DNA of 64,000 bases. It comes from an uncultured Nitrospiraceae bacterium (GTDB lineage Bacteria > Nitrospirota > Thermodesulfovibrionia > Thermodesulfovibrionales > UBA6898). This document shows positions 31,143 to 60,792 of the stretch, one piece after another; the stretch's first letter is position 1, and every line of letters starts with the position of its first letter. The position numbers and the translations under genes were made by a program. The stretch spans positions 224,001-288,000 of the forward strand of contig CAWEQH010000004.1 of the NCBI GenBank assembly GCA_963811165.1. Reading direction: 5' to 3'. The notes beneath the pieces were generated by a model. It did not search any database. It was not told the DNA's origin and saw only the letters and a program-made list of their open reading frames with translations.

Positions 31143-31149
31143 GGCCACT

Positions 31150-32871: not shown

Positions 32872-32888
32872 GCTTTAAGGAAGAAGTC

Positions 32889-38565: not shown

Positions 38566-39958
38566 TTACATCCATCGGGAAAATAGATGCGCAAACCACT
38601 CCCTGATCCTTGGGAACAAAGGCCTTTTCTTCCAATCTTCCCATTTAATCTGGTCGGACTCGGCAAGGTCCTTGGCAAACATCTTCTCCATTTCGACGGC
38701 AAACTCGTGACTCAGGATAACCGCATTCACCTCGTCATCGCTTAACAGGCTCCAGGAGTCCATGTTGGTTGAACCGACTGTCGACCAGACTTCGTCAATC
38801 ACCGCAGTTTTCGCATGCAGCAGGGCGTTGCGGCGTTCGTATATCTTCACCCCCGCTTTCAAAAGCTCGGAATAATTATACCGCTGTGCCTGCAGTGCCA
38901 GGTTAGAATCGGTGATTGCGGGAACAATAATCTTTACGTCAACGCCGCGTCTGGCGGCATCGGTGAAGGCATCCAGTATCTGGTCGTCGGGGATAAAATA
39001 GGCATTCGTCAGATGGATCGAATGCTCTGCAAAAGTGATGGCGGACACATAGACAATAAAAGTGATCCGGTTGTCCTGCCCGGGCGTGCTGCCGACCACC
39101 CGCACCAGGGCATTCCCCACTTCTTTCAGATCAGGGAAATAGTTCCGTCTCCGAAAGTTCCGGGCCCTTCTGCTTCTGCCAGGTATCAAGAAAGAGTTTT
39201 TGGAATTCAGCCACGGCAGGGCCTTCAATTTGAACGTCTGTGTCACGCCAGGGCAGTGGCGCCTTTTCATCCTTGTCCCTGCGGAAGGGCGTGCTCGAAT
39301 AGACCTTACTGATATTGATACCCCCGGTAATGGCAACTTTGCCGTCGATGATCAAAATCTTGCGGTGGTCCGGATGCGCAAGTAGCCATTTCCCGTGGGC
39401 CTTGAACGGATTTAGCGGATTGAATTCGACCACCTGAATTCCCCCGTCCCGCAAGCGCTGGAAAAAGGGGGCGGGTGTACTGAAACTGCCGATGCTGTCA
39501 AAAATGAGATTTACCTGGACACCCTCCGCCTGTTTTTGCAACAGCAGATCGGCAAATTTGCGGCCTGTTTCATCATCTTCGATGATAAAGGTTTCAAGGT
39601 TGATATGGTCTTTGGCATTCTGTATTGCTTTGAACATTGCGGCATAGGCAGCCTGACCATCAACGAGCAGAGTGACTTTGTTCCCCTTCGTCAGCGGGCT
39701 TTCGGTGACCGATTCTACCACGGCATTGTGGCGTTCCAGAATGTCCGTCGGGTCGACCGATCTCTTCAGCCGTTCCATGATAGCCTTGCTTTTTTGGGGA
39801 GATAACAGTCCTTTGGACGAAACGATTTGAGGAGGTTTCTGTTCAGCCGGCGCCTCATCAATCATTTCAGAGACGTTCGGCAAGGTCGCACATCCATTGC
39901 TGAGGCCCAGGATGGATGCGAGCAGAAAGAATAAAAAGAAAGGCTTGGCTCTTTTCAT
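38566..39958 (-). CDS. cls: Cardiolipin synthase / phospholipase D family (frameshift at ~39145-39152)
   Basis: Two HKD motifs (HRKILIID, HAKTAVID) in different frames. Lipoprotein-like N-terminus LSNGC. Confidence 0.88.
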
Positions 39959-40141: not shown

Positions 40142-41266
40142 ATGACCGGCATAGAGATTATTGCTGTTGAAGGGAGATCGGAACTAAGAAACTTCATTGA
40201 CCTGCCGTGGAGGATTTATGCTGAGTACCCCAACTGGGTCCCCCCCCTAAAGAATGAGGTCCGCCGGATGCTGGACCCCCGCAAACACCCCTTCTGGGAA
40301 TTTTCCGAGCGCATACTCTTCCTGGCGCGACGTGGTCCGGAAACGGTCGGAAGGATCGCAGGCATTGTAGATCGTAATTATAACAAGTGCCACGGCGAAA
40401 AGATGGGCATCTGGGGATTTTTCGAATGCACTGACGATACGGAGGCCGCAGCCGCCCTCTTCTCTTCCGTTGAGACGTGGGTCGGCCAGAAGGGGATGAC
40501 TTTCCTGAGAGGCCCGCTCAACCCGTCGATGAATAACGAGTCGGGGTTGCTCATCGAGGGGTTCGATTATCCGCCTGCTGTGTCGATGACTTACAATCCA
40601 CCGTATTACCTCAGGCTGATCGAATCGTGCGGCTTCACCAAAGAGAAGGACCTGCTGGCCTTTCTACTGGATGGAGGCGATTACCGGCTGCCTGATTGGA
40701 TGGACCGTCTTGCTGAACGGACCGCCCAAAAAAAAGGTGTCCGCATCAGGCACGTCGATCCGAAGAATCGGGATGCCGAGTTCGCCCTGATCAGGGAGAT
40801 CTACAACGACTCCTGGGCCGGCAACTGGGGTTTTGTCCCCCTGACGGAAAACGAGATGAAGGACATTCAAAAAAGTGTAAAGCCCTTCGCGGACCCGGAC
40901 CTGGTGTTCTTCATCTATTATGAGAATGAGCCGGCGGCGGTCTGCGTGATCTTTCCCGACATCAACCCTTTGCTCAAGCGCCTCAACGGCAGGATAGGCC
41001 TGCTTGGTCTGTTCAAGGCGCTCATCTATCGGCGGGAGATCAACGGATTGAGGTTGTTGATGTTCGGAATCAGGGAGAAGTATCGACAACTGGGGCTTCC
41101 CATGCTGGCGTTCCGGCATATATATAAGATTGCGAGGGAAAACAAGAACTATCAGCATCTGGAGATGGGCTGGACCCTGGAGGACAACGAGTCGATCAAC
41201 GCATTGATAGAGGAAGCCGGCGCTAGAATATACAAGAAATATCGCATATTCAGAAAGTCGTTATAA
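40142..41266 (+). CDS. Two-domain GNAT acyltransferase (YghO / bacterial ceramide synthase-like)
   Basis: FIDLPWRIY...WVPPL, HPF, GRIAGI, GFFEC.DD, GPLNP, YNPPYY, IYNDSW..NWGFVP, WTLEDN. Confidence 0.8.
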   Translation: MTGIEIIAVEGRSELRNFIDLPWRIYAEYPNWVPPLKNEVRRMLDPRKHPFWEFSERILFLARRGPETVGRIAGIVDRNYNKCHGEKMGIWGFFECTDDTEAAAALFSSVETWVGQKGMTFLRGPLNPSMNNESGLLIEGFDYPPAVSMTYNPPYYLRLIESCGFTKEKDLLAFLLDGGDYRLPDWMDRLAERTAQKKGVRIRHVDPKNRDAEFALIREIYNDSWAGNWGFVPLTENEMKDIQKSVKPFADPDLVFFIYYENEPAAVCVIFPDINPLLKRLNGRIGLLGLFKALIYRREINGLRLLMFGIREKYRQLGLPMLAFRHIYKIARENKNYQHLEMGWTLEDNESINALIEEAGARIYKKYRIFRKSL

Positions 41267-41270
41267 TTTA

Positions 41271-42107
41271 ATGAATTGGAAAGTAGCCGAACGAGTATAT
41301 AGAGCGTGTCTCCTCGTGGGAGTGATATTACTCACGGGGGTTTCGGCAGGTTGCGCCCACAGGCTCTATGCTCCGATGCAACCCACCGGCTGGAGTGCCC
41401 AGCCTATCGTGAACGCCTGCCGCTTTGCCCCTGACGCCGACCTGGACCCTGCCACCGGAACGCCGGTCGGGGACGAAGGGTATTACCTTTATATCCTGAC
41501 CGAATCTGCCCATTGGGACTTCAGCTATGCGCCGGGACTTCTCTTTTCAATTTGGCGTCAGCCTTGGGCGCATAGCTGGATCATCCTCGAAAGTCCCGGG
41601 GACCGTCTGGAATTCGGCCACACCGGCGACTTCGGGCTGGAGAAACCGCGTTACCATTTGGGGGTGATACAAAGAATTCGGGAGGGAGACCCCAATCCTA
41701 TCGCTTATTTGTGGCAGACGATGTCCGACGGAGAATTCCAGATCGGCAAGCCCCCCCGCCCCCCCACATTCGTCTGGAGAATGCCGATTACACAGCGACG
41801 GTATCAACTGATATATGAATACGCGATGCACCGGAAGTATGACCAGTTCGGATTGAGGAGCAACAATTGCACAGACATGGTGGCGGAGATAGCTGCGATG
41901 GCGGGCATCAACCTGATCCACCGCATTCGCCTCACCCTGCCGCCGGAAACAAAGTTCTTGGGCAAGAAGGCGCGTATCTGGACGGACCCACAATACCGCA
42001 TACTGGAGTTCAGCACACCCGAAGTTCTTGAGGTGGATCTGCGGCAGCTTGCCCGGATGGGAATCGGGAGTGATGTCACTGAGTGGTATCTGTCTTTGCA
42101 ACACTGA
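41271..42107 (+). CDS. Lipoprotein with permuted papain-like (NlpC/P60) His...NNC motif
   Basis: SAGC lipobox, AHSWIIL before Y..F...SNNCTD. Confidence 0.55.
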   Translation: MNWKVAERVYRACLLVGVILLTGVSAGCAHRLYAPMQPTGWSAQPIVNACRFAPDADLDPATGTPVGDEGYYLYILTESAHWDFSYAPGLLFSIWRQPWAHSWIILESPGDRLEFGHTGDFGLEKPRYHLGVIQRIREGDPNPIAYLWQTMSDGEFQIGKPPRPPTFVWRMPITQRRYQLIYEYAMHRKYDQFGLRSNNCTDMVAEIAAMAGINLIHRIRLTLPPETKFLGKKARIWTDPQYRILEFSTPEVLEVDLRQLARMGIGSDVTEWYLSLQH

Positions 42108-42186
42108 AGATCGAGCTGTTATTTGGCCGTATCGGACCCGATTGATCGACCCGGCGAATTACGGTAAAATTTCTGTCAAAAGGTGA

Positions 42187-45100
42187 ATGTGTAAATTGAA
42201 GCATAAGAAGTCTGTTATATTGGCCGAGCATCGGGACCCAATTATTGCTTTTGTCTGGCGGCCCGAGGAGGTCATCCCACCTGTGATCCAGATGGCTCAC
42301 AGAACAGGGAGCAGGGCCATCTTCGACTTTTGCTCGATGGGGGCGGAAGAGTTGCGTTCTTTCTTACGAAAGGCCGATCCTACCGGCCACGTTAGGGATA
42401 TCAAGATTTCTGCCCCTGCCTTGATCGATCCATCTTTTGGGCGGTTCCTTCAGGAAACAGGGGTCCAGGACATCTGGGTAGAATTCCACCCCCGGTTTTC
42501 CCAGGGAGATCCTTCAGTCTTTCTGCAGAGATTTAAAGAATTGTCGGAAGACCACCGTTGCTTTCCGATCGTCGGGGACCCGAATCTTCTCACAGCGATT
42601 TTGAAGGACAACCCGGAAATCGGGCGCATCGTATTGAAAGGATGCGAGGCCTCTGGATTCGTGAGCGGTGAGACGACCCTGGTTCTCTATTCGGCGCTCA
42701 AGGAAATGCTGCGCACCTCCTCGAAGTCTCCGGATATCCTCATCTGGGGAGGCATCTGCACCCCTGAGGCGGCAGCGGCATTCCTGTCCACAGGGGCCAC
42801 CGGGATCGTCTTTGAGAGCGTCCATTGGCTGACAGATCTGGTTGCTGTTGATCACCTCCAGCGGCAGCTGCTCGCCGGGCTTCGTATGGATTCTACCGAT
42901 CTGGTCGGTCTGGACCTGCAGGCCCCTTGCCGCCTTTTCAACAAAGGGAACTCGCTTGCGTTCAGGGAGATTAAGACGTTCGAGAACTCGCTGTGCGGAG
43001 CAGAGATCACGGATGAAAGCCGCCGTTCCTTTATAAGCCAACTGTATGCCAGGGCCCTCCACCCTCTCGATAGCCGTTTCAGTCAGGACGAGGTCATCCC
43101 CATGGGTGTAGAGGCCGCCTTTGCCGCGTCTTTCGTTGAGCGTTTTGGGTCTGAAACCCAGGATGCCGTGCAAGCCTTCATGGATGAAATTCGAACCTTA
43201 TGCCGTTCGACAGAGGTGAAAAGGGATTGCTTTTTGGACAGCCCCGTAGCCAAAGAGATGGGAACCATGTATCCCTTTATCCAGGGCGCCATGTCTTCCA
43301 TCACAGATGTACCCGAATTTGCCTCAAAGGTTGCGGATGCCGGTGGACTGCCCACCATCGCCCTTGGCCTGATGGACGATCAGGCCCTTGACCGGAGGCT
43401 GGGACCTTTACCTGAGATCATGGGAGGTCGCCCTTATGCAGTGAATGTCGTTTCCTTGGCAGAGAACCCTCTGCGGGGGACGCATCTTGCCTGGATAAAG
43501 AAACACAGACCCCGATTTGTGGTGATCGCAGGGGGTGACATATCCCCCCTAAAAGAATTGGCAGAATGCGGCATGGAGGTCATCTATATCGCTCCTGATG
43601 AGGCCATGATGAGGCTCGCCCTTGAAGCCGGCGTCCGGTATTTAGTCTGCGAGGGGTACGAGGCCGGGGGCCACGTCGGGCGACAGAGCACGCTCACCTT
43701 TGCTCAAACGGTGCTGGATCTGAAACGGCGCAACCCATTCCTCTTCCAGGACCGACGCGTGATCCTTGCAGGGGGAATCTTCAATCGGGAGACAGCATTC
43801 ATGGCCGCCATGCTCGGTGCGGACGCTATCCAGATGGGGACCACATATCTGGCCACCCGGGAGATCGTCGAGACCGGCGCATTGACGGAACTTTATCAGC
43901 GCATGATCCTGGAATCGCCTCCCGGGGGCACCATCATTTCAGGGCAGGGCACCGGACTTCGGGTCCGCTCCCTGAGGACCCCGAAAGTGGCGTCTCTAAT
44001 CTCCCTGGAGAGAGAGTTTGCAGCGGGCCGCCAGGACGAGCGTTCCTTCCGCGCAAAGATAGAAGAGATGTCCGCTGGGAGCCTCTTTGCCGCGGCCCGG
44101 GGTCTGGACAAGCCGGGAGGGGCGCCACTTGATGAGCGGGCCTGTCTGCAGCGGGGGCAATTTATGAGCGGGGCATGCGCGGGCCTCATCGGTCGGGTCC
44201 GGACGCTGCAGTCATTTCACCGCGAGCTTGCCGAAGGCCCCCTTGAGCTCTATCAGCCTTTTGGAGAAACCCCGTCCCCGCAAATTCGCCACAGCCTCAC
44301 CCGGGTCGCCCCGTCTAAAGACTATCCAGAGAGGATTGCCATCACAGGGATGAGCATTGTTAATGCCTTGGGGAATGGACCGGAGGAGGTCTGGGCCGCA
44401 AGCCTGGCAATGAAGAGCGGGATTACATTGGTCCCGCCATCGCGGTGGGACCACGGGCGTTTTTATGATCCCCGGCCGCACGTTCCTGACAAGACCTACT
44501 GCCAGGTGGGCGCCTTCCAGGATTTTCGTATTTTCCGCAATGATCTCGGGATCTCCCCGCAGGATTTCCGGACCATGACCCGGGCCACAAAGATCACGCT
44601 GTGGCTGGCAGAGAGGGCCATCCGGGCCTCGGGCATCCTGGAGTCGGACATTCCGCGCGAGCGAATCGGGGTCCTCATCTCCCAGAACTCGGGAGAGGCG
44701 GCGGGGACACTTTCCAATATTCACATCAGGGCGTATGTTCACGACATCCTCGCCGACATCAAGAAGGCCGTTCACCTGACACCGGGTCAGTTTAACGCCA
44801 TCGAACAGGCGGTGAAGTCAGGGCGCATGGCCCCGGACGACACCACACTCCTCGGCAGACTCAACTGCGCGACGGCTGGTTTCATCTGCAATCGGTATGG
44901 GTTCATGGGGCCGAGCTTTGCAGTCTCCGCAGCCTGCGCGACCGCGCTGGTCGCACTGCACAGCGCCATTCAGATGATCAGAAACGGCATCATCGATGCT
45001 GCCATTGTGGGAGGGGCCGAAGAAGACCTTACCCACCTGCATTTTCTGGAATTCTCCGCACTCGGCGCACTTTTTGGGCTGTCCGGACAGGAAAGGCCTC

Positions 45101-48100
45101 CTCGCGAGACCTCCCGTCCCTTCGATGCCGAACGAGACGGCATGGTGCTCGGCGAAGGCGGGGGAATGATCGTCATCGAGCGGGAAAGCCTGGCCCACGC
45201 AAGAGGGGCGCTTGTCCAATCAGTCATCACCGGCATCGGGGCGAGCAACAACCATATGGGTATGGTGGAGTCCTCCAGTGTCAGTCAGGAAATGGCCATC
45301 CGCGCCTCTTTCCGCGATACACCCTACGGGCCTGATGCAGTGGACCTCGTGGAATGCCACGCCACGAGCACCCGGCAAGGGGACGTGGAGGAGGTCCGTG
45401 CCCTGAAGGCAGTATTCGATTCTTCAAGGCGCACGGTGATTACCTCATTCAAATCCCAGATCGGACACACACTGGGCGCCTCGGGTATTAATAGTCTTAT
45501 TCGGGGGATCATGGCTATGAAGTCTGAGGTTTTCCCTGCCACCCTCAATTATACGCATCCGGACCCGGAAATCGACTTGAAAGGATCGGGTCTACTCATC
45601 ACCCGGGAACCGCTCGGGTGGAAGTGCAGGGCCGGACAGCCGAGGAGATTTCAGGTCAACGCATTCGGGTTCGGAGGTTCCAACTACGTTGTACAGGTGG
45701 AGCAGGCCATGGATGAAGTGGATACGGTCCTGGTCTCCCCGGAAAGAGAATACGGTTTTGACAAAGAACCCGATCTCCGTAGAGGGAAGGGAGGTGGCTC
45801 TCCGACGCTCCAGGGCGTCTCTTTCTTCCGGACTGAGATAGACGGCCGGAACTTCCGGACGGCAGTCGTGGCGCGATCCGAAGAGGAGGCGATCACGGTC
45901 ATCGAGAGGTCGGCTTCTTTTGCCGAAGCCGGAATCGATTCAACCAAGGCAGTAAGGTCCCTGGCGCAGCAGGGGATCTTACTGGGCCGCGAAGATATGC
46001 CAGTCTTGCCCCTCGCCTTTGTATTTCCGGGGCAGGGGGCACAGTATGGAGGAATGGGGCGGGATCTCTACGAATCCTTCCCCGTCATTAAGGAATGGAT
46101 GGATCGGGCTGCAGCTGCAGCTGACTTCGACCTCCTTCACTTATTGTTCAGCGATCGAGAGGAAAATCTTGCAAAAACCCGTTGGCAGCAACCCGCCATG
46201 TTCGCCATTGAACACGCCATGGCCCGATACCTTACCACCCTGGGTATCCACCCCGTGGCGATGGCCGGCCATAGTTTGGGCGAACTGACCGCCCTGTGCC
46301 TGGCCGGTGTCTATTCCCCGGAGGACGGGTTTCGAATCGTGAACAAGAGGGCCCTTTGCATGGACAAGGCCGCTGCTATGCACGTGGAGCCCGGAGTTAT
46401 GGCGGCCGTGGACGTCCCCCTTGATCTGCTTAAAGAGATGATCAATGGACTGGAGAATGTCCACATCGGCAATATCAATTCACCGAACCAGGTTGTCCTG
46501 AGTGGCAGCACCGGGGCGGTCAAGAATCTTGGTAATAAAATAAAGGGAATGGGGTACCGGGCCACCCTGTTGCCGGTCAGCATGGCTTTTCACTCTCCTA
46601 TCATGAGGGTCATCCATGATGAGCTCGCGGCGTACATTGACTCCGTTCCATTTCATGCCCCGCAGATCCCCGTCATCTCCAACACGACCATGGCGCCGTA
46701 TCCATCAGATCCCGACGAGATCAGGCGAATCCTGATGGCCCATCTGGAATCTACCGTCCACTGGATGAATAACGTGCAGACCCTTTGGAATGACTATGGA
46801 TGCCGGCTCTTCGTGGAGGTGGGCCCCGGCGATATATTAAGCAATCTCATCACAGACGCGCTTCCCGAACCGGCATGCATCCAGACCTGCCTTCCTTCTA
46901 CAGAGGGTCTGACCTACAAGACCGCTCTTGCTCAGCTCTTCGTCCAAGGGCATCTGAAGGTTGAAGGAGAACCGAGGTTTGTTTCCCTCTCTGCATTCGG
47001 GAAGACTCCTGCATCGGGCCGCAACAACCCGGACGGACAAGCCTCCTCCGCCCTCGCCGAAACATCTGAGCATCAGCATCATATAGAGGCGCTCGTTCAA
47101 ATCATCATGGACGCTACAGGATTCAACAGGGATGAAATCAAGCCCGATATGGATCTCAGAAGGGACCTCTCCATCCGCTCCAGCCGTCTTCCGATAATCA
47201 TGGATGCAGCCGAACGCCATTTCGGAATCACCATCGAACTGGAGGATTTTATAGGTCTTCGTACTGTCAGGGACATCGCCGAAAAGATTTCCGGACTGGT
47301 CGCTGCAAAAGATGGTATCGACCTGCCGCCGGCCGCAAGGTCGGCCAATGTGGGCCCTGCAATCAATGAGGGGCAGGCTTCCCAAACTTCTGCGCATCAG
47401 CACCATATAGAAACGCTTATTCAAATCATCATGGACGCTACAGGATTCAACAGAGATGAAATTCAGCCTGATATGGACCTCAGAAGGGACCTCTCCATAC
47501 GCTCCAGCCGTCTCCCGATAATCATGGACGCAGCCGAACGCCATTTCGGGATCACTATCGAACTGGAGGATTTTATAGGTCTTCGTACTGTCAGGGACAT
47601 CGCCGAGAAGATTTCCGGACTGGTCGCTGCAAAAGATGGTATCGACCTGCCGCCTGTCACCAAGACAACTGAACCTGGCTTAGTGCAAGACGAAACCTGG
47701 AAACCCTTACAGGATGAGGCGAATCTGAAACGGCTCGTATTCAGGACCGTTGCTGTGGAGCTATCGGCATCTGCTCCAATAAAATTGAGCCCAGGCGAGT
47801 CAGTCCTCCTTCTGTCACTTGACAGGGATGACGGGATTGCAAAAAATGCCGGAGATATATTCCGGCAGGCTTACGGTGTTGTCACAATTCCCATGCCATT
47901 TATGAAGGTTAACGATACTGGACAAGAAGGCTATGATATTTTTACTGATGAAGGGTCTTATAAGGTATCAGAGAGAATATCGGGGTTGGCGTCCCTGGCC
48001 GGGATGGTTATCACCTTACCTGAAGACTGGGCAGGAAGGTTAAAAGGCGTCGCGGATGTTTCGCGGTTTGTGGGGGGACTATTTCTACCACTTAAGGCAT

Positions 48101-50133: not shown

Positions 50134-50150
50134 GCCATGGGTACAGACAG

Positions 50151-50885
50151 ATGAGAGTGAATTTGGCAAAGGACCGCGAAGAAGTAACCGTCCATACGAT
50201 GAATCCCGTTCATCGAAGGGGACCTGTCTTTTATGCCTCCCTCCAATGTGGCACGGAAATTCGCAAGGGTCATGGTACGAACGGAGAAGCAGCGAAACAC
50301 CGCCTCGTCTCTATCCTATGGAACCACCTTGTGGCGAGGGAAAGTCCTCTTTGGAAACGATCTCAATCTTCATGCAGAGATGCTTTCCTGATTCGTGTGG
50401 TCCACGACCAGCTTGGCAAGCCCCATCTCCTGTTGGGAGAGCATCGGGGGCCAGCTGTTTCCTTCAGCCAGGGTGGAGGAAGAGTCTGGGCCGCCCTCTG
50501 TGCAGATGCGTCTGAGATCGGCATGGATGTGGCGGTGGCCGATGAATTCCAAGGAGAATACCCCTTTCAACGGGTATTCCATACAGAAGAGCTTCAACAT
50601 GCCCTAAGGCTGGAGGGTGCAGATGTTGCAAAGGCGTCCGCCCTGCTCTGGTCCATCAAGGAAGCCGTTGTCAAGGCCCTCGGATGCGGTTTCCATCTTG
50701 TGGATCCGAGGGAAATCTGCGTCCATCCTTCAGGAGAAGTGGGCGGCGGGTATACCTTTTCCGTGTGTATGTCAGGGAAGGTCCTGGCGCGGTTTCCCAA
50801 AAGCGCCGGCCAGTCCTTATGGGTACGATCTATTCCCCAAGGGAATATGCGGCTTTCGATCGCCCTTTTAAATCAACAACCATGA
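50151..50885 (+). CDS. 4'-phosphopantetheinyl transferase (Sfp-like)
   Basis: LGKP, VSFS, IGMDV, WSIKEAVVKALG.G. Confidence 0.85.
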   Translation: MRVNLAKDREEVTVHTMNPVHRRGPVFYASLQCGTEIRKGHGTNGEAAKHRLVSILWNHLVARESPLWKRSQSSCRDAFLIRVVHDQLGKPHLLLGEHRGPAVSFSQGGGRVWAALCADASEIGMDVAVADEFQGEYPFQRVFHTEELQHALRLEGADVAKASALLWSIKEAVVKALGCGFHLVDPREICVHPSGEVGGGYTFSVCMSGKVLARFPKSAGQSLWVRSIPQGNMRLSIALLNQQP

Positions 50886-52123
50886 ATAACCTTACCTGCA
50901 AGTGCGTATCTCGGTTAGACGGAGTATCGTCGGCAGAACTTGGACGGCTTTTCCAGGAGCCTTCTATCACGGCCCCATTACTTTCTCTCTTGCAGGAATC
51001 GGGTATTGACGGTTTCAATCTGCGGAGCATAGTAGTCTTAAAAGATGATGTTCCTGTTCTTTTGTTGCCGTTGTTTGAAACACGTTTTGACCTGTCCAGC
51101 TTTGTGAATGGATGGCTCAAGAGATCGCTTAAAGTGGCGGGCCGCCTCATCCCCCCTGTTTTTCAACCCCGTATTTTAAGCGTGGGACTGCTGGTAGGGG
51201 AATGGAGTGAAATAGGGATTGATCCTCAAATTGATGAGGGCACCCTCGAAGCGGCATGCAAAACGGCCCTTGATGCCTTGCAAAAGCTCGGATCCGAACT
51301 TAAAAGCGACATCGTGGCTTTTTACAACTTTAATCATTACGGCAAACTTCCCGGAGAAGTATTCGAGAAATTCAACCGGGTGCAATGTCAGTCCTGCGCC
51401 CGACAGCCTATCGATTTTAACAGCATGGAAGAATACATGGGCCGCCTTTCAAGGGCCGCGAGAAAAGACCTGCGCCGCAAAATGCGCGCATCCGACGAAG
51501 TCAGGGTGATTCGAAGCCGCACTATTTCTCCTTTTCTGGACAGGGTCTACAAGCTTTATCTGGAAACAGTGGCGCGGAGCCCACTGGCGCTTGGCGTGCT
51601 CAACCGTTTATTTTTTGAAAAAATCTGTGAGAGAGTCCCGGGCGCCGAATACACGCTTTATTTTGTGCAGGACGAACTCGTTGCTTTCAACCTTCTTGTG
51701 GTAAATAAGGAAGCGATGGTGGATAAATATTTCTGTATGGATCAGGAGCTCGGCCGCAAGTACAACCTTTATGCTTTGTCCTGGCTTGAAAATGTCCGCA
51801 CCTGCGTGGAGCAAAAAATACCTTTCTATTACGCCGGTCAGGGCGCGGAAAAGACCAAAGCGCATCTGGGTGCGACGTTGATCCCGAGCTTTATTTTATT
51901 CAAACACCGCTGGCCGGTGTTTGACCGTTTTCTTGACGGGCAACCGGCGGTGATCCAGAAGGTCCTCAGCGACCTTGGATTCTGGCACAGGACCGACAGG
52001 AGCACCCCCTCTTCAGATATTCCGGTACCTTGTAACCTTCAAAAGCAACCCCCCTCGCTCCCCCCTTGTCAGGGGGGAAGCCTCCAAACCTCCCCCGATA
52101 AGGGGAGGTTTGGAGGGGTTTGA
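50882..52123 (+). CDS. FemAB-like / GNAT-fold protein
   Basis: F.S.EEY..LSR..RKDLRRK, LY.ET, FF.KI, LVAF, GQG..KTK..LGA. ATGA overlap with the PPTase. Confidence 0.72.
   Translation: MNNLTCKCVSRLDGVSSAELGRLFQEPSITAPLLSLLQESGIDGFNLRSIVVLKDDVPVLLLPLFETRFDLSSFVNGWLKRSLKVAGRLIPPVFQPRILSVGLLVGEWSEIGIDPQIDEGTLEAACKTALDALQKLGSELKSDIVAFYNFNHYGKLPGEVFEKFNRVQCQSCARQPIDFNSMEEYMGRLSRAARKDLRRKMRASDEVRVIRSRTISPFLDRVYKLYLETVARSPLALGVLNRLFFEKICERVPGAEYTLYFVQDELVAFNLLVVNKEAMVDKYFCMDQELGRKYNLYALSWLENVRTCVEQKIPFYYAGQGAEKTKAHLGATLIPSFILFKHRWPVFDRFLDGQPAVIQKVLSDLGFWHRTDRSTPSSDIPVPCNLQKQPPSLPPCQGGSLQTSPDKGRFGGV
52047..52120. repeat. Composite palindromic (REP/MITE-like) element inside the 3' end of the GNAT ORF
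   Basis: CCCCCC-TTGTCA-GGGGGG and CCTCCAAACCTCCCC-CGATAA-GGGGAGGTTTGGAGG hairpins, flanked by AACCCC/GGGGTT. Confidence 0.75.
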
Positions 52124-52129
52124 TGAGAT

Positions 52130-53077
52130 ATGACCAAAGAAACAGAATACGCAATCGAAGTCGAGAAACTGACGAAGAGTTACGGGGATTTACTGGCGGT
52201 CAACGACATATCGTTCGCCGTCAGAAAGGGCGAGGTGTTTGCCTTCCTGGGCCCAAACGGCGCCGGCAAAACTACAACGGTCGAGATCATCGAGACGATC
52301 CGTCCTCCCACTTCCGGGAAGGTGACCCTTCTTGGCATGGACGTTACGAAGAAGAAGCATGACATCGTCCACCGCATCGGCGTCCTCCCGCAGGGGTTCA
52401 GTTCGTTCGACAGGATAACGGTCAGGGAGACCCTGCAGTACTACGCGCGGCTATTCAGCGTGAAAACGGATATCGACGGATTGATTGAGCTCGTAAACCT
52501 CAGGGACAAGACCAAAGAGCAGTACAAAAACCTCTCCGGTGGCTTGAAACAGCGCCTCGGAATTGCGATTGCCCTCGTAAACGACCCGGAGGTCGTGTTC
52601 CTCGACGAGCCGACGACTGGGCTCGACCCCCGCGCCAGACACGAGGTATGGGAGGTCCTGCTTGGCCTTAAAAAGAAAGGGAAGACTGTATTTCTCACCA
52701 CACACTATATGGAGGAAGCGGAGCTTCTTGCAGACACGGTCGCCATAATCTCGAAGGGGAAGGTAATCGCCACGGGCTCGCCACGTGAACTCATCGAAAG
52801 CAATGCGAATTACCTGGCCCTCACGCTAAAGCCGGTCGATGGAAAAGTCTTTGAAATAATCCGGACGATGGGCTTCGAGCCGGTCCTTGACAACCACAAC
52901 GACATCAAGATCAGGGTAGAGCACACAGACGATGTGCAGAAGATACTGAATGCCATCAGGGATGCAGGGGCCTTGTACCTCGGTCTGGACGTTCGGAAAC
53001 CCAACTTTGAAGAGGTATTCCTGAAGCTCACCGGCGAGGCGCTGCGGGAAGATTCGCCCGAAATGGTGGCGAAATGA
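52130..53077 (+). CDS. ABC-2 exporter ATP-binding protein
   Basis: GPNGAGKTT, LSGG, FLDEPTTGLDP, TTHYMEEAE. Confidence 0.95.
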   Translation: MTKETEYAIEVEKLTKSYGDLLAVNDISFAVRKGEVFAFLGPNGAGKTTTVEIIETIRPPTSGKVTLLGMDVTKKKHDIVHRIGVLPQGFSSFDRITVRETLQYYARLFSVKTDIDGLIELVNLRDKTKEQYKNLSGGLKQRLGIAIALVNDPEVVFLDEPTTGLDPRARHEVWEVLLGLKKKGKTVFLTTHYMEEAELLADTVAIISKGKVIATGSPRELIESNANYLALTLKPVDGKVFEIIRTMGFEPVLDNHNDIKIRVEHTDDVQKILNAIRDAGALYLGLDVRKPNFEEVFLKLTGEALREDSPEMVAK

Positions 53078-54189
53078 AACCGCGGATCATCAGTGCAAAT
53101 CTTGTTGTGAAGCTCATGGGATTCTACCGCGAGAAGACCACCATGTTTTTCACGTTTGCGTTCCCGATAGTTCTGATACTCGTCTTCGGCACGATATTTA
53201 TGAGCCAGGACAGCATGGAATACCGCCTTAGCGTGCAGGACCTCGACCAGACAAAGGCGTCCGCAGAATCCGTCAAGACCCTGGGGCAGAAAGGGAAATT
53301 CAAGATAACAAGCGTCGACCCTGCCGTCGACGCCACGCGGTACGTCAGGGACAGCAAGGTGAACCTTGTCCTCGTTATTCCGAAAGGCTATGAAAAGTCT
53401 CTCGTGCAAAGAATGATGTTCAAGGAATATAACTCATCCGTAACCATTACCTATATATACGACCCCAGCTCCTCTTCGGTCATGACGAAGATTCAGATCC
53501 TTAATGCAGTGTTGGCCGGGATAAACCAGGGGATATCCGGGGTTCCGCCTTTCATCAGATCGGCCGAAAGATCGATACTCGCCAGGAAATACCGGTTCAT
53601 CGAGTTCTTCGTCCCCGGTATCATCGCGATGTCGGTGATGACGCTGAGCCTTTTCGGCACCGTGGACTCTGACACGGAACTGAGGCAGAAGGGTGTCATC
53701 AGAAAGTTGTCCACCACGCCTATCACCCGCACCGACTGGATACTTTCAAACATCCTTTACCATTTCATCCTTGCGGTCATATCCACTATTTTGATGCTGC
53801 TGGTGAGCTACGCCGTGTTTGACGTCAGCCTGCATATCGACGCCTGGCTCCTTGCGTTCGTTTTGCTTGACGTCTTCGCGTTTGTCGGGACCGGCATGAT
53901 ACTCACCCGTTTCGTTAAGGAGGCGCAGAGCGCGGCAGCCGCCGCAAACGCCATCAGTTACCCGATGATGTTCCTCTCTGGGAGCTTTTTCCCTATCGAG
54001 CTGATGCCGGGGTTCCTGCAGAAGATAGCCAGGACACTGCCTCTTTATTACGTAAACGAGGGGCTCCGGGCATCCATGGTATTTCGGGACAACATGGCCG
54101 CGCTGAGGTCCTCCGCAGTCATAGGGGTTTATGCGGCCGCGGTCTTTATCCTGGGGATCATGGCCACCAGATGGGAAGAGGGCCGGTGA
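53074..54189 (+). CDS. ABC-2 exporter permease
   Basis: FFTFAFP, FFVPGIIAM, FLSGSFFP..LMP. ATGA-coupled. Confidence 0.92.
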   Translation: MKPRIISANLVVKLMGFYREKTTMFFTFAFPIVLILVFGTIFMSQDSMEYRLSVQDLDQTKASAESVKTLGQKGKFKITSVDPAVDATRYVRDSKVNLVLVIPKGYEKSLVQRMMFKEYNSSVTITYIYDPSSSSVMTKIQILNAVLAGINQGISGVPPFIRSAERSILARKYRFIEFFVPGIIAMSVMTLSLFGTVDSDTELRQKGVIRKLSTTPITRTDWILSNILYHFILAVISTILMLLVSYAVFDVSLHIDAWLLAFVLLDVFAFVGTGMILTRFVKEAQSAAAAANAISYPMMFLSGSFFPIELMPGFLQKIARTLPLYYVNEGLRASMVFRDNMAALRSSAVIGVYAAAVFILGIMATRWEEGR

Positions 54190-55955
54190 CGGCAAAGGAC
54201 TCCCTTCGCGCCGTCACTCAGACACACTATCCCCGCGCCATCAGCGCCTTGCTTTTAGCGACGCTCGCGGTACTCATCGATCTCATAGTGAGGTCCGGCG
54301 CTTACCGGGACCTGCTCCTTCTCCTGCCTGTCGGCGGCATCATGAAATTATCGGCCGGCCTCGCGCTGGCCTTCCTGCAGATGGTCGCGCTCTTCTATCT
54401 CGTTGTCCTTCTCCCCGCAATTTTCCGCCTGGCGACCGTCCTTTTTTCTTCCTTCGTCATAGTCGTACAGTGCTCATACTGGCTGACTCTGAAGCAGTTC
54501 ATGACCGGCACCGACCTGCTTTTAGCCCTGACCGTAAGCGGTGAAAACCGGGCAGACGCCATCTCAAGCTTCTTTCAGCCGCTCGTATTCCTGTATGCTC
54601 TCCCCTACGCACTGGTTCTGTCGGCACTGTTGTTCGTCCGCCCTGTATCCACCTTCCGCAAAAACTTCGTCCTCGGCCTTCTGCCGGTGCTCTTTCTTCT
54701 TACTTCCAATTACGCTCTCTTCCTCCACGTGCCTGAACGCAGCTTCCATCTGAACCCCCTGACATCCTTTGTCCGTTTAACGCTTCATTACGGGTTTGAA
54801 AATCTGCGCGCCTATCATGGACCACGCGATGAACTGCCTCCGTTCCACGTCTCCCAACGGCCGCCCGACAGCATAATCTATGTCATCGATGAGTCGGTCC
54901 GGGGCAGCAATCTCAGCCTGAATGGCTATCCGCGGGCCACCACACCGTTTCTTCAATACCTCGAATCACGGGGACGCCTGAAAAATCTCGGCATCTGTAT
55001 CGCGGCCGGTTCCTTTACCCACATCAGCAATGCCTATCTCATCAGCGGTCACAACTCTCTCCCCGACAACGACTTTCGCACCGACAGGAACCCGACCATC
55101 TTTGACTACGCAAAGAAAATGGGCTACGAGACGATCTACATTGATATCAATCAAGCCTACCTCCCACAACTCATGAAAGCGGCCGGGGATGCTCCTGTTC
55201 GGTCCCTGGACCGGTGGATGAACGAGCAGTCGTTTACGGAGCGCCACATCGACCTTGAGACCACGAAGGACCCGGGCATAGCCCGTTTTCTCAGCGGTCT
55301 TCTGAATGCGCGGGGCGGCTATTTTATCGTCGTCAACAAAAAAGGTCTCCATTTCAAATATCACTACAGATACCCGGACGAACCGGCCTTTACGGTCTGG
55401 AGGCCGGTCATGAAGGCTTCGGACCCCATTGACATCAGCGCGGCCGGACGCGAGAAGCTCGTCAATACCTATGACAATGGGATCCGCTTTCAGGTTGATG
55501 AATTCTTTCGGGTGCTTATTTCCGAAACGACGAACCAGAACTATGTTATTCTGTACACCTCGGACCATGGACAGACCTTGTCTGAGCATGGGCAATTGTA
55601 TACACACATGAAGCCTGAGAAGGTTATCGTCGATGTTCCCGAGTTCCTCGTGTCAGGCGAGCGGTATGCAAGGAAAGGGCTCTTGGCCGGCATTGCCCTA
55701 GGCATCAGGATTTCCCATCTCAACAATTTCGCGACCCTTCTCGACCTGATGGGAGTACCGATGTCTTTGAGGGTCCGTCCTTACGACAAATCGATTTTCT
55801 CTTTGACAGCCGGGGACAACAAAGTGCGCTACTTTATGAGCGGCTCTCTTCATGGGACCGGTGATTACGTGGTGAAGATGATACCTACGCCACCTGATGT
55901 GCACCTGGCTGTTTCGAGACCTTTCGGCAATGGGGCCAGGGCTGACGGACAGTGA
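54186..55955 (+). CDS. EptA/LtaS-like membrane-anchored phosphoform transferase (sulfatase fold)
   Basis: About 5 N-terminal TMs, IDESVR, GYPRATTP, catalytic-type Thr in GSFTHIS, NTYDN, YTSDHGQ. Confidence 0.82.
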   Translation: MTAKDSLRAVTQTHYPRAISALLLATLAVLIDLIVRSGAYRDLLLLLPVGGIMKLSAGLALAFLQMVALFYLVVLLPAIFRLATVLFSSFVIVVQCSYWLTLKQFMTGTDLLLALTVSGENRADAISSFFQPLVFLYALPYALVLSALLFVRPVSTFRKNFVLGLLPVLFLLTSNYALFLHVPERSFHLNPLTSFVRLTLHYGFENLRAYHGPRDELPPFHVSQRPPDSIIYVIDESVRGSNLSLNGYPRATTPFLQYLESRGRLKNLGICIAAGSFTHISNAYLISGHNSLPDNDFRTDRNPTIFDYAKKMGYETIYIDINQAYLPQLMKAAGDAPVRSLDRWMNEQSFTERHIDLETTKDPGIARFLSGLLNARGGYFIVVNKKGLHFKYHYRYPDEPAFTVWRPVMKASDPIDISAAGREKLVNTYDNGIRFQVDEFFRVLISETTNQNYVILYTSDHGQTLSEHGQLYTHMKPEKVIVDVPEFLVSGERYARKGLLAGIALGIRISHLNNFATLLDLMGVPMSLRVRPYDKSIFSLTAGDNKVRYFMSGSLHGTGDYVVKMIPTPPDVHLAVSRPFGNGARADGQ

Positions 55956-55973
55956 TTTTTGGGAAATGAAAAC

Positions 55974-57326
55974 ATGAACATAAAACTTATCGCACCGCGC
56001 GAGCAGCGTGAAGACACTTTATCCAGCTCTCTTAAACTACAGAGGGTAAATCTTCCGCTTCTTGCAGCGCTTGCGCCGCCCGGGCACAGGGTCACAATCG
56101 TCGATGAGGCCTTTGGACCCGATGACACTAACCAAGATGTGGACTTGGTGGGTATCACCGTCATGACTGATGTTGTGCCAAGGGCCTATGATATCGCTGC
56201 TGCCTATCGCCGGAAGGCCGTGAAGGTGGTGATGGGAGGGATACACCCCACGGTATTGCCTGACGAAGCTTTAGAGCATGCGGACTCTGTAGTCGTGGGA
56301 GAAGCGGAGGGTATCTGGCCACAACTTATATCTGATGCGGCCTCTGGGCAGATGCAAAGAATATATCGGGCCGATAAAATGACCGACCTCCAGGGCCTGC
56401 CCAAACCCCGGCGGGATCTCTTCCCCGGAAGCAAAGGTAAAGGCTATATCCCGATCCCGATCGGCGTCGAGACATCCCGGGGATGTCCGAACGATTGTGA
56501 ATTCTGTTCTATCGGACGGACATTGGGGCGTCAATATCGGGTCAGGCCGGCTCTGGAGGTGATTGCCGAGATAGAGGCCATTGATTCCCGTCACATTTTC
56601 TTTGTCGATGACGCCCTTGCGCTGAACCGGAATGAAGCAAAAAAGCTCTTTACTGAAATGATACCTCTTCGGCGGCTATGGCTGGGGCAGGGGACGGTGT
56701 CGTTGGCTGAGGATGTGGAACTGCTCAGGTTGATGAGACGTGCGGGGTGCATGGGGCTTTTGATCGGATTCGAATCTGTACAGAAAGCAACCCAGAATGA
56801 GGTGAAGAAAATAAAGAACCTGAGGATCGATTTTTATGAGGCGATGCGTCGGTTCCATGACGAAGGTTTCGGTATTCTTGGCGCGTTTGTTTTTGGCTTT
56901 GATTACGAAAACAAGGACGTGTTCGACCAGACCCTTGAGTTTGTAATGAGGAGCCGCATGGATTGTGCCGAGCTAAGGATTCTCACTCCGTATCCGGGGA
57001 CCCGGCTATATGATCGCCTCTTAAGCGAAGGCAGGTTGTTCGAGCGTGACTGGTGGCTCCGTGGATATCCTCCTGATACACTTCTTTATCAACCCAGGGG
57101 CATGACTACTGAGGAGCTCATTAAGGGTTTCGCCCGCTTGAACAGACAAGCATATTCCTTCGGAGCAATAACAAAGCGATTCTTTGGCATGAGCCCGTGG
57201 AAACGGACCCTGTTCGGTTGTCAGGTGTACGCCGGGATCAATCTTTCTACCCGTAAGCGTTATTTCAATGGTCTGAAGAGTCCACAACCATTTGCAGGGG
57301 CTTCCGACTCAACAGTAGAGCGGTAG
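55974..57326 (+). CDS. B12-binding radical SAM protein
   Basis: GGIHPT, GEAE, SRGCPNDCEFC, IGFES, LTPYPGT. Confidence 0.92.
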   Translation: MNIKLIAPREQREDTLSSSLKLQRVNLPLLAALAPPGHRVTIVDEAFGPDDTNQDVDLVGITVMTDVVPRAYDIAAAYRRKAVKVVMGGIHPTVLPDEALEHADSVVVGEAEGIWPQLISDAASGQMQRIYRADKMTDLQGLPKPRRDLFPGSKGKGYIPIPIGVETSRGCPNDCEFCSIGRTLGRQYRVRPALEVIAEIEAIDSRHIFFVDDALALNRNEAKKLFTEMIPLRRLWLGQGTVSLAEDVELLRLMRRAGCMGLLIGFESVQKATQNEVKKIKNLRIDFYEAMRRFHDEGFGILGAFVFGFDYENKDVFDQTLEFVMRSRMDCAELRILTPYPGTRLYDRLLSEGRLFERDWWLRGYPPDTLLYQPRGMTTEELIKGFARLNRQAYSFGAITKRFFGMSPWKRTLFGCQVYAGINLSTRKRYFNGLKSPQPFAGASDSTVER

Positions 57327-57414
57327 AGATTACCTATGAAAAGACGGGCAAATATATGATCGTGTGGTATGACGTTGCATTGAAGGGTTTTCTGAAATAG
57401 AATTTTATAGAAAT

Positions 57415-58797
57415 ATGGTTATCAGAAGAATTTCATTTATCGAAGCGGGCTCACCCGGCCTGCATATTTTCAGCAAATTTCCCATACCGCGGCTTGGCGC
57501 CGTGTTGCTTTCTACTATCCTCAAGGCAAGTGGATACGAAGTAAAGGCATTTATTGAGGACGTTGCCGAACCCGATTGGTCATTCATTGAGAACTCCGAC
57601 ATCGTCTGCATCTCGACCATAACGTCGACAGCGACAAAGGCGTACAAAGTAGGGAAACGGCTAAAAGCACTGGGGATGCCGGTGATTATGGGTGGGGCAC
57701 ATCCTACGTTTATGCCCGATGAGTCCCTGGAATATGCCGACTTTGTCATACGGGGGGAAGGAGAGCATTCCCTTGTGGAACTGCTTGAGCACCTGGTGAC
57801 CGGTACCCCGGCATTAGCGGGTATCAAAGGGCTTTCGTACAGGGACAGGGACGGGAGGAATGTTCACAACCCCTCCAGAGAATTTATCGAAGACCTCGAC
57901 AGCCTCCCCGAGCCTGACTTCTCCCTTGTCCATAACTGGACCCCGTCAAATACCTATCCTGTTTCGACGTCGAGGGGCTGTCCCTATGACTGCAAGTTCT
58001 GCTCAGTCATCCAGATGTTCGGAAGAAGCTACCGTTTTAAATCCGTTGAGGCAACGCTGAGGGAATTGAAATATGTAGCATCAGCGTCCAAGGCGACCAA
58101 GTTCATTGTTGACGATAACTTTGCGGCTAATAAAAGAAGGACCAAGGAAATCCTCAGGGGGATGATTGCAGAGGGAATTAAGACGCGATGGTCTGCCCAG
58201 GTAAGGACAGATGTTGCCAGAGACCCGGAACTTCTCCGCCTGATGGCTGACTCGGGCTGCCATACTTTGTACATCGGCTTTGAATCCATCAATCCCGCGA
58301 CGCTTGAAGACTATAATAAAAGGCAGGGACTGCAGGATATTATTTCCTGCATAAGGACAGTAAGGGAACACGGTATCCATATCCACGGAATGTTCGTCCT
58401 GGGGGCGGACACTGACGATGTGGAGACCTTCCGCGGGACTGCTGATTTTGCAAGAGACCATGGGATTGACACGGTACAGTTCCTGATTCTTACACCGCTG
58501 CCGGGAACACCGTTCTTTCACGACATGATGGAAAGCGGAAGACTTCTCCATAGGGACTGGAGTAAATATGATGTCCAGCATGTAGTTTTCAGCCCCCGGC
58601 TCATGTCACCGGCCACGCTGCAGATAGAGACCTTCAGGGCAATGGGTCGTTTTTATTCATGGAGATATATTTTCAGGCATCTGGCCAGATTGGACTTCCA
58701 CTACGCAGCGATCGGACTCTTTGGCAAGACAGCCGTTCATAAATCCCTGAAGGCGTCTTCCGTCTATCTTGCTGACCTCGGCCTCAGCGCCGGTTAA
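57415..58797 (+). CDS. B12-binding radical SAM protein
   Basis: GGAHPT, GEGE, SRGCPYDCKFC, VDDNF, IGFES, LTPLPGT. Confidence 0.92.
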   Translation: MVIRRISFIEAGSPGLHIFSKFPIPRLGAVLLSTILKASGYEVKAFIEDVAEPDWSFIENSDIVCISTITSTATKAYKVGKRLKALGMPVIMGGAHPTFMPDESLEYADFVIRGEGEHSLVELLEHLVTGTPALAGIKGLSYRDRDGRNVHNPSREFIEDLDSLPEPDFSLVHNWTPSNTYPVSTSRGCPYDCKFCSVIQMFGRSYRFKSVEATLRELKYVASASKATKFIVDDNFAANKRRTKEILRGMIAEGIKTRWSAQVRTDVARDPELLRLMADSGCHTLYIGFESINPATLEDYNKRQGLQDIISCIRTVREHGIHIHGMFVLGADTDDVETFRGTADFARDHGIDTVQFLILTPLPGTPFFHDMMESGRLLHRDWSKYDVQHVVFSPRLMSPATLQIETFRAMGRFYSWRYIFRHLARLDFHYAAIGLFGKTAVHKSLKASSVYLADLGLSAG

Positions 58798-60067: not shown

Positions 60068-60268
60068 ATGGAACAAGGAACAGTGAAGTGGTTTAATGAC
60101 AGCAAGGGTTTTGGATTCATCGCGAATAGCGATGGAAGCGAAGCTTTTGTGCATCATACTTCCATCCAGGGTAATGGCTTTAAGAGTCTTGCTGAGGGTG
60201 ACAAGGTCAGCTTTGATACCGAAAAAGGCCCGAAAGGCCCCAAGGCAATCAACGTCGTCAAACTGTAA
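60068..60268 (+). CDS. Cold-shock protein (CspA family)
   Basis: [15 protein letters not shown] (RNP1), AFVHHT (RNP2), GFKSL.EG, KGP.A.NV. Confidence 0.96.
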
Positions 60269-60323
60269 TCAGCGGGAAGAAGGCCTCTTCACGATGAAGG
60301 GGCCCTTCTCATTAGAGGAGAAG

Positions 60324-60695
60324 ATGAACACCAGTGCGAACAGCAAAAAGAATGCAGCAAGGATTGAAAGGCAGCAACGGAAGCTCGACGCAGGTTCTAT
60401 GGTTGCCCAATTCCCAGAGGTTAAGGGCATCGCCATCAACATGATATACAGCCAGAGGGGCATACTGAAATCAGTGCCCAGGGTTGTTAATTTCTTTCCC
60501 GGCAGTTCTGCGTTGTTCAGGATAGACTGCCTGAAAAAGGAATGTACCAGCGGAGGGTTTGATCTCACCCAGGTCATCACCGGGATGATCAAAAACCGCA
60601 AAGAGGCCGCCAAAGGAGATCTCAGTTGCGAAGGCGTCGGTCCTTCTGCCGACCACTCAAATATTGCCTACGAAGTTGCCATACAATACGCATAG
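60324..60695 (+). CDS. Hypothetical Cys-motif protein (paralogue 1)
   Basis: FPEV..I.I.M...R.VNF.P.S.A.F..DC...EC..GGFDL..VI..MI.N....G.L.CEG...I.Y...IQY. GAGGAG RBS. Confidence 0.75.
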   Translation: MNTSANSKKNAARIERQQRKLDAGSMVAQFPEVKGIAINMIYSQRGILKSVPRVVNFFPGSSALFRIDCLKKECTSGGFDLTQVITGMIKNRKEAAKGDLSCEGVGPSADHSNIAYEVAIQYA

Positions 60696-60792
60696 AGCCG
60701 CTGCCCTTTAATCGGCAATCAACGTAGTCAAACTGTAACCGACCTGAGAAGCCGCTCCGTAGTGCAGCGGGACTTCATCTGAAAGGTGAATA

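Follow-up and report, generated by a model that had tools for sequence, protein, structure and literature searches.

A widespread bacterial gene cluster in which an iterative polyketide synthase is paired with a dedicated ceramide synthase homologue

Bacterial ceramide synthesis has been solved only recently, as a pathway built on Spt, a bacterial ceramide synthase (bCerS) and CerR (PMC11087976, PMC11324152, PMC9386255), in which the order of acylation and reduction is still described as debated (PMC11087976). The sole bacterial case that we found of a polyketide synthase (PKS) linked to sphingolipids is PfSgaAB(C) of Pseudomonas fluorescens MYb115, where an iterative type I PKS is described as acting with Spt to feed the long-chain base (PMC12134224). 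Two other groups of synthases are relevant here. The Type P synthases of Azotobacter and Beijerinckia are reported to make C22-26 chains (PMC3098273), and the chains bound to the acyl carrier protein (ACP) of Azotobacter ArsA are described as passing directly to the acceptor enzymes ArsB/C (PMC6274091). PfaA-E and Hgl synthases have a core of ketosynthase (KS), acyltransferase (AT), serial ACPs, ketoreductase (KR) and dehydratase (DH), together with a flavin mononucleotide (FMN)-type enoyl reductase (ER) and a dedicated phosphopantetheinyl transferase (PPTase) (PMC3098273). Here, we analyzed a window of 64,000 nucleotides from an uncultured Nitrospiraceae bacterium (contig CAWEQH010000004.1), in which a large PKS follows a homologue of bCerS. 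We consider, with a probability of roughly 55%, that the synthase builds a long acyl chain which the dedicated bCerS links through an amide to a sphingoid base.

All ten co-directional genes that the first-pass annotation had placed around a 2,648-aa PKS are present on the + strand between positions 40142 and 58797. Their description as often ATGA- or GTGA-coupled held in part: overlaps do exist (ATGA between PPTase and second GNAT and between ABC ATPase and permease, GTGA between permease and EptA-like gene), at only three of the nine junctions, and the remaining six gaps are 4, 79, 17, 6, 18 and 88 nt. The genes are as follows.

40142..41266, + strand: PKS-dedicated bCerS/YghO paralogue, 374 aa; core, proposed chain off-loading N-acyltransferase
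41271..42107, + strand: predicted lipoprotein with a permuted NlpC/P60 (papain-like His/Cys) fold, 278 aa; accessory
42187..50133, + strand: one-polypeptide iterative fatty acid synthase (FAS)/PKS, 2,648 aa; core (Pfam, motifs, ArsA-type collinearity)
50151..50885, + strand: 4'-phosphopantetheinyl transferase (PPTase); core (PF01648)
50882..52123, + strand: FemX/aaPGS-fold tandem GNAT (PF04339/PF13480); accessory (Pfam and Foldseek)
52130..54189, + strand: ABC-2 exporter, ATPase 52130-53077 and permease 53074-54189; core (Pfam/NCBIfam)
54171..55955, + strand: EptA/MCR-like membrane phospho-group transferase with a probable GTG start at 54186; accessory
55974..57326, + strand: B12-binding radical S-adenosylmethionine (SAM) protein 1; accessory but tied to the cluster (Pfam)
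57415..58797, + strand: B12-binding radical SAM protein 2; neighbour, probably not a cluster member

Across the homologous loci described below, the conserved core consists of bCerS, synthase, PPTase and ABC-2 exporter, whereas the NlpC/P60 lipoprotein, the FemX-fold GNAT, the EptA-like enzyme and radical SAM 1 are optional.

The first gene had been labelled only as a GNAT acyltransferase. It has no Pfam or NCBIfam match, and a PDB sequence search returned nothing meaningful for it. However, it aligned end to end with YghO of E. coli BL21 (ECD_02850, in the spt locus), at 32% identity over 382 columns (E 3e-70). The yghO gene is listed as an orthologue of Caulobacter CC_1154 (PMC9386255), which has been named cerS (PMC11324152); through the YghO alignment, gene 1 is thus a full-length homologue of this orthologue group. 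The genome also carries a housekeeping set on contig C8 (C8:531164-534410), composed of a cerR-type epimerase, spt and bCerS. The best PDB match of this Spt is Spt itself (E 3e-136), with a score of 590 against a cut-off of 640 for NF047600, and the epimerase is 26% identical to the E. coli cerR candidate. The PKS-linked bCerS copies formed a clade of their own apart from the housekeeping bCerS (SH-aLRT 100; 39 rows, quick tree; all trees in this work are quick or FastTree trees without bootstrap). Among 60 related genomes, housekeeping bCerS and spt were each found in 55, whereas the full paralogue occurred only in the four that carry the PKS (at 75-91% identity), with a 37-residue fragment in one more. 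Gene 1, together with the spt and cerR homologues present in trans in this genome and often in cis elsewhere, resembles the described ceramide pathway; the difference is that a second bCerS clade is linked here to a type I synthase, a PPTase and an ABC-2 exporter of its own. The PKS-linked GNAT would likely N-acylate a sphingoid base. Two earlier suggestions, that an acyltransferase, and not a thioesterase, off-loads the chains and that the product is amide-linked and ceramide-like, are both supported by these data.

The synthase shows the Pfam order NMO-type FMN enoyl reductase, KS, AT, two ACPs, KR and PS-DH, which corresponds to an ER'(degenerate)-ER-KS-AT-ACP-ACP-KR-DH architecture without a release domain. 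Neither a thioesterase nor a terminal reductase was detected by Pfam in its 2,648 aa, as had been noted before. Its domains are as follows.

42187..43221 (approximate boundaries), + strand: degenerate first ER barrel, N-terminal 345 aa, EASGF replacing EAGGH
43258..44229, + strand: FabK/PfaD-like FMN enoyl reductase of the active type (EAGGH, His496; PF03060 E 1.6e-18, TIGR03151 E 3e-35)
44329..46869, + strand: KS (Cys917, His1058, His1094) and malonyl-type AT (GHSLG Ser1363, MAFHS), from Pfam and motifs
47074..47631, + strand: two near-identical ACP domains with an unusual DLSIRSSRLP where DLGxDS is expected, from motifs
48418..50124, + strand: KR (Tyr2228, LRD motif) and C-terminal PKS-type DH (His2376, Glu2566), from Pfam and motifs

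In an alignment of the window protein and 38 full-length homologues, the KS Cys/His/His, the AT Ser and the ER EAGGH His were conserved in 39 of 39 sequences, and the KR Tyr and the DH His and Glu were found in every variant among the top eight listed for each. Because the catalytic motifs are intact, we rejected the possibility that the gene is a pseudogene or relic. None of the 37 aligned sequences that span the motif has the catalytic-type His in the first ER barrel; the His of xEAGGH is the proposed catalytic residue (PMC13311796). The ACPs carry DLSIRSSRLP or a close variant in 39 of 39 synthases, whereas DLGxDS is kept by this genome's FAS II ACP and by ArsA-type ACPs. Most homologues have a single ACP, versus two in the window synthase.

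The closest annotated match of the synthase is of the ArsA type. A Beijerinckia ArsA-type synthase (BIND_RS19780), through which we compared the Type P arsABCD system of Azotobacter, is collinear with it (28% identity over 1,534 columns, E 4e-127), with the same ER'-ER-KS-AT-ACPn-KR order and a first ER that likewise lacks the His. The window PKS thus combines the tandem N-terminal FMN ER, the KS-AT-ACPn-KR series and the missing thioesterase of Type P synthases, and in both systems PPTase and ABC permease genes then follow; a logic of direct hand-off would be shared as well. Apart from the low identity, the differences are that DH resides on the synthase here and on the PPTase in Ars, that the ACP motif is RSS rather than DS, and that bCerS stands where Ars has a type III PKS. 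No type III PKS was found in the window cluster by Pfam or among the recurrent neighbour families of homologous loci, and an alkylresorcinol cluster was rejected on this ground; nor did any gene of the window cluster show similarity to an ArsD-type DH-PPTase fusion, the DH being fused to the synthase. From gene order and the 28% identity, we infer a synthase of the ArsA kind in which the type III PKS partner would have been exchanged for a ceramide synthase. It may equal one of the uncharacterised Type S or T architectures outlined in PMC3098273.

The first-pass annotation had viewed the synthase in the light of Pfa/Hgl-type iterative synthases, which our data did not bear out. Although the KS-AT-ACPn-KR-DH core, the FMN-type ER and the dedicated PPTase are shared with that group, the ER is fused here at the N-terminus as a tandem, and neither PfaB/PfaC (KS-chain length factor, FabA-type DH) nor a separate PfaD is present in the cluster. 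The best lipid-synthase model, TIGR02813, scored 459 bits against a cut-off of 1,010. With no chain length factor or FabA-type DH, a Pfa (polyunsaturated fatty acid) synthase was rejected. A second family of KS-AT-KR synthases, about 2,520 aa long, was observed in the relatives G025 (C4:37826-39190), G003, G004, G006 and G030. It is 29% identical to the window PKS, no ER motif was found in it and none of the cluster genes lies beside it; it is a different system.

To examine the distribution of the cluster, GTDB was scanned with the PKS; 117 stretches matched, and the best 80 were kept, which gave 68 loci (a few loci share a genome). Counts given below over 47, 58, 31 or 41 loci cover only those with enough flanking sequence. 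The 68 loci show 54-90% identity and spread over many phyla, including Nitrospirota, Desulfobacterota, Acidobacteriota, Planctomycetota, Verrucomicrobiota and others; all of those listed are metagenome-assembled genomes, and record titles point mainly to peat, soil and sediment bins. In 43 of 47 loci, the bCerS paralogue is found no more than 2 kb upstream of the PKS. A reverse search of 80 metagenome loci anchored on the paralogue, 33 of which were dropped for having less than 1.5 kb downstream, placed a synthase within 2 kb in 44 of the remaining 47. A PPTase gene directly 3' of the PKS was found in 57 of 58 loci and the ABC pair in 43 of 47, followed by radical SAM 1 (24/47), the FemX-fold GNAT (22/47) and the EptA-like gene (16/47). 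Such synteny is far beyond chance, and the earlier proposal of a conserved lipid cluster, for which synteny in other genomes had been named as one deciding point, is supported. Mixing of taxa in the trees suggests horizontal transfer. In some genomes, the PKS-linked bCerS or the cassette is present twice (L030 and L091; G073).

Genes for sphingoid-base synthesis were then considered in and beside these clusters. An spt or α-oxoamine synthase (AOS) gene lies within the fetched flanks of 24 of the 68 loci and a cerR-like epimerase gene in 23 (one at just 26% identity); one or the other is in cis in 30 of 68 loci (18 of the 31 that have full flanks), with several arrangements of the genes. Sphingolipid genes have entered the cluster repeatedly. 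By simple arithmetic, one spt per 4-Mb genome would fall within a 20-kb flank in about 0.5% of cases, a figure to be read with the fact that kin are not independent. In 13 loci (L049:22128-25667 on the - strand and 12 others), the AOS is part of a fusion of about 1,180 aa with a fatty acyl-AMP ligase (FAAL) and an ACP, which resembles AasR-AcpR-Spt of the known pathway as one chain and is paired with the PKS at three places on the PKS tree. Having a FAAL and an ACP of its own within the fusion, this AOS should draw on an acyl supply apart from the PKS. A PAP2 gene was seen in 12 loci and a lipid kinase gene in three. We also searched whole 50 genomes of the 68 loci, calling Spt by interpretation of matches. 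A Spt-type enzyme was present in 43 of these: 24 at at least 55% identity to this genome's Spt, 14 as fusions (one cut by a contig end) and five at 45-48%, located next to bCerS or within the cluster. In 18 of the 50 genomes, whose completeness is not given, the PKS-linked copy was the sole bCerS found. One of these, G104, is a single chromosome of 4.97 Mb, in which the top match of the Spt model is the in-cluster fusion.

These genes bear directly on a second route, of the SgaAB kind, in which the PKS chain would pass to Spt to form the long-chain base and the linked bCerS would add an ordinary fatty acid. Such a route has a precedent in strain MYb115 (PMC12134224), where, as described, the PKS is likewise iterative, of type I and devoted to sphingolipid synthesis, and is set apart by having Spt as its partner where the fixed partner here is a ceramide synthase. 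The 24 loci with spt or AOS in cis are consistent with it, as is the PKS clade of L072, L083, L085 and L086, where three loci are without the paralogue upstream and two have spt upstream; an unusual base would also require a special bCerS. Nevertheless, we regard this route as unlikely. An adjacent PKS-Spt two-gene core is not seen in the window, whose cluster holds no spt; the invariant neighbour is bCerS rather than spt; this genome's Spt is a housekeeping enzyme, occurring in 55 of the 60 relatives irrespective of the PKS; and the FAAL-ACP-AOS fusions bring their own loader. It is because bCerS is the fixed neighbour and the fused AOS has a separate loader that we assign the PKS chain to the N-acyl position.

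Several side observations were made on these genes. The PKS subclade of L072, L083 and L086, which has no linked bCerS upstream, carries there a 1,430-aa CoA-enzyme-activase gene (BcrAD_BadFG/DUF2229), with spt in two loci and a distant bCerS (27-31%) downstream in two; the ACP segment of L072 and L083 is altered, reading EMKDFF for ELEDFI. A natural Spt-bCerS fusion of 786 aa is encoded at L097:5426-7786 (-) (G110:C38). A conserved 324-aa protein, weakly similar to UDP-GlcNAc 2-epimerase/GT-B proteins and possibly a lipid glycosyltransferase, occurs at L049:6282-7256 (+) and eight other loci, often immediately upstream of the cerR-like gene. In the window genome, a fabF-like gene (G000:C8:529886-531127, +) converges on the housekeeping cerR-spt-bCerS operon, and fabF with acp and spt also adjoins several PKS clusters (L046, L047, L092).

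The second GNAT (50882-52123) matches PF04339 below the curated whole-family strength. With a model of pLDDT 61, its best Foldseek match was FemX (E 1.5e-5), along with Sbb17 and DUF2156 proteins (E about 1e-5 to 1e-4), and CoA-dependent tandem GNATs match it as well. Residues R194, K195, R199 and K200 are invariant and may belong to a basic tRNA-binding helix. The protein is a candidate aminoacyl-tRNA-dependent transferase. The family to which its domain belongs also bears the name of BioF2, a mycobacterial AOS described as having Spt as its nearest validated relatives (PMC12910592). The FemX-fold GNAT (22/47 loci) and the FAAL-ACP-AOS fusion (11/47) were never found together (0/47), as if they were alternative sources of the amine. 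This pattern, the lack of spt in the window cassette and the long stem branch of the paralogue would all agree with a non-sphingoid acceptor, such as an amino acid, an amino alcohol or the aminoacyl product of this GNAT, and hence with an aminolipid. We think this rather improbable, because a stand-alone spt accompanies the GNAT in cis in five of 22 loci (L046, L047, L065, L083, L086), cerR-like genes recur in 23 of 68 loci and the exclusivity of GNAT and fusion is confounded by descent.

The lipoprotein (41271-42107) has no Pfam or NCBIfam match, and no Pfam family was found in 125 members of its group. Its H101, W103 and C200 are invariant in 125 aligned sequences, a lipobox-like motif is present in 110 of 120 close homologues and, among the 60 relatives, the gene is confined to the four PKS carriers. 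Foldseek alone gave no match at E <= 0.001. With a structure model of pLDDT 95, a wide structure search recovered TseH (Z 11.1, root-mean-square deviation 3.9, 141 aligned) and YiiX (Z 8.0), with RID, PLAAT4 and CLN5 at lower scores. RID, PLAAT and CLN5 are lipid acyl-transfer enzymes. The lipoprotein shares with the permuted NlpC/P60 enzymes (TseH, YiiX, PPPDE, RID, PLAAT4, CLN5) a permuted papain-like fold in which His precedes Cys, while it is only 10-16% identical to these structures and has no Pfam family; it is a candidate periplasmic transacylase or amidase.

Other accessory genes largely kept the labels that they had been given, which Pfam/NCBIfam, sequence and fold comparisons confirmed. 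The EptA-like protein aligned over its full length with MCR-1/EptA (E 5e-16), and its membrane and alkaline-phosphatase-superfamily domains, Thr nucleophile position and E, H and DH metal-ligand motifs are kept; it is a putative phospho-group transferase that would work like EptA/MCR, at a score well under the cut-off of the lipid A transferase family (NF028537, 88 vs 500 bits). Both radical SAM proteins possess a B12-binding domain and a CxxxCxxC radical SAM domain and lie far below the NCBIfam cut-offs of the named methylase families (HpnR, PhpK, BchE and others). The first-pass annotation had counted both as cluster members. This holds for the first, whose close orthologues (84-86%) among the 60 relatives occur only in three of the four PKS carriers. 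The second was rejected: it occurs in 20 of the 60 relatives, 19 of which have no PKS, and only 2 of the 68 loci have it close to the PKS. Roles in head-group transfer, methylation and export are suggested by family membership.

The best NCBIfam scores of the ABC exporter are to DrrA/NodI-type ABC-2 systems. Together with the patchy spread across many phyla at high identity, which is typical of secondary metabolism, this could point to a secreted small molecule (a surfactant or an antibiotic lipo-amide) rather than a membrane lipid. Such a product appears very unlikely, considering that no non-ribosomal peptide synthetase, thioesterase or reductase is present, that the accessories (EptA-like enzyme, PAP2, lipid kinase, lipoprotein) are those of membrane-lipid tailoring and that Ars-type lipid clusters likewise end in ABC permeases.

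The cluster is real, conserved, widespread and uncharacterised, and it is most likely a megasynthase-fed ceramide pathway. In the proposed mechanism, the PPTase would prime the atypical ACPs, and the KS, AT, KR, DH and FMN ER, an intact domain set, would iterate on malonyl units to give a mostly saturated long chain, whose very great length is presumed from ArsA. The sphingoid base would be supplied by the housekeeping cerR-spt-bCerS locus on contig C8 or, in other genomes, by an in-cluster spt or FAAL-ACP-AOS gene. The PKS-linked bCerS would then free the chain from the ACP as an amide, in place of a thioesterase, CerR would perform the reduction step and the ABC-2 pair would export the resulting ceramide-type lipid. 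Judging from their families, the accessory proteins may tailor the product in optional steps: radical SAM 1 through methylation or another radical reaction, the FemX-fold GNAT through aminoacylation, the EptA-like enzyme by adding a phospho head group and the NlpC/P60 lipoprotein by remodelling acyl groups.

It should be noted that several points weigh against this mechanism. First, spt is not in cis in the window cassette, no clear Spt was found in seven of the 50 genomes searched whole (completeness not given) and the fused AOS scores higher with BioF than with Spt in NCBIfam (348 vs 313 bits), although PDB ranks Spt first. Second, with only 32% identity to YghO and a long branch in the tree, the paralogue may have come to use another amine acceptor; YghO is, according to PMC9386255, an assigned orthologue and not an assayed enzyme. 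Known bacterial CerS is described there as an acyl-CoA N-acyltransferase, which makes the use of acyl-ACP by the paralogue an assumption. Third, four of 47 loci are without the paralogue upstream, two of which have spt there instead (L083, L086). Finally, the likeness to ArsA is just 28% and was measured on the Beijerinckia homologue, and Beijerinckia was not found to make phenolic lipids, as reported in PMC3098273. A sphingolipid product, by whichever route, is quite probable.

Every part of the cluster has a known relative. The literature that we searched on a PKS combined with a ceramide synthase or with Spt yielded SgaAB and fungal clusters as the only relevant cases, and the coupling of PKS and ceramide synthase was not found there, in line with the earlier impression that the combination is not a recognised characterised cluster. 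If the proposal is true, iterative type I synthases would have a new mechanism of chain release, and long-acyl ceramides a biosynthetic route that recurs in uncultured, oxygen-avoiding bacteria of many phyla. The genes of this family are candidates for making orphan sphingolipids found in anoxic waters and peats. Ceramides whose fatty acids exceed C31 and reach C39, over half of them odd-numbered, have been described with no known producer (PMC11334938). These orphan (1-deoxy)ceramides come from euxinic Black Sea water and are said to correlate with Desulfobacterota or Bacteroidota; the same report lists Gly-Cer and Lys-Cer classes and, in the portions available, makes no mention of polyketide synthases (PMC11334938). 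The head group of Lys-Cer is given as lysine (PMC8311935). Long-acyl or aminoacyl ceramides could plausibly come from this cluster. That it is the missing route to very-long-chain-acyl ceramides of anoxic habitats, and would explain the Black Sea orphans, is a tentative idea to which we give rather long odds: an ArsA-like synthase would make C26-C39 chains, the private ceramide synthase would install them and the B12 radical SAM enzyme would add a methyl group to give odd carbon numbers. Against this idea, many of those lipids are reported to carry sulfur groups that no cluster gene explains (PMC11334938), ArsA itself is described as stopping at C26, and the titles of the cluster loci are mostly from peat, soil and sediment.

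The flanks of the window cluster were also considered. The neighbouring cls, AsmA and mla genes, earlier taken to fit a lipid role, are not conserved there and were rejected as cluster members: they flank only 5, 4 and 4 of the 41 loci having at least 9 kb upstream. GC content gave no clear island signal (52-60% in the cluster vs 45-56% in the window flanks), and neither the promoter scan (9 sites vs 11.4 expected) nor the terminator scan (26 vs 18.3 +/- 4.3 expected, none at the cluster end) was used. The cls gene (38566-39958, -) is broken into two open reading frames (ORFs) by a frameshift near 39147. Since one base is missing at that site in contigs of two public runs and cls is intact in relative G002, the break is probably an assembly error or specific to the strain. 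In the mlaE/F/D/C genes (30332-33483, +), the MlaE and ABC ORFs appear fragmented, MlaE (188 aa) spanning half of its profile and the ABC ORF matching only the profile end. Two small paralogous hypothetical proteins at 60096-61170 (+), with no family match, have several further copies in the genome. Another pair of paralogous hypothetical proteins (33519-34112, +, and 37473-38264, -), about 40% alike and without Pfam or NCBIfam match, was seen again next to a few homologous clusters.

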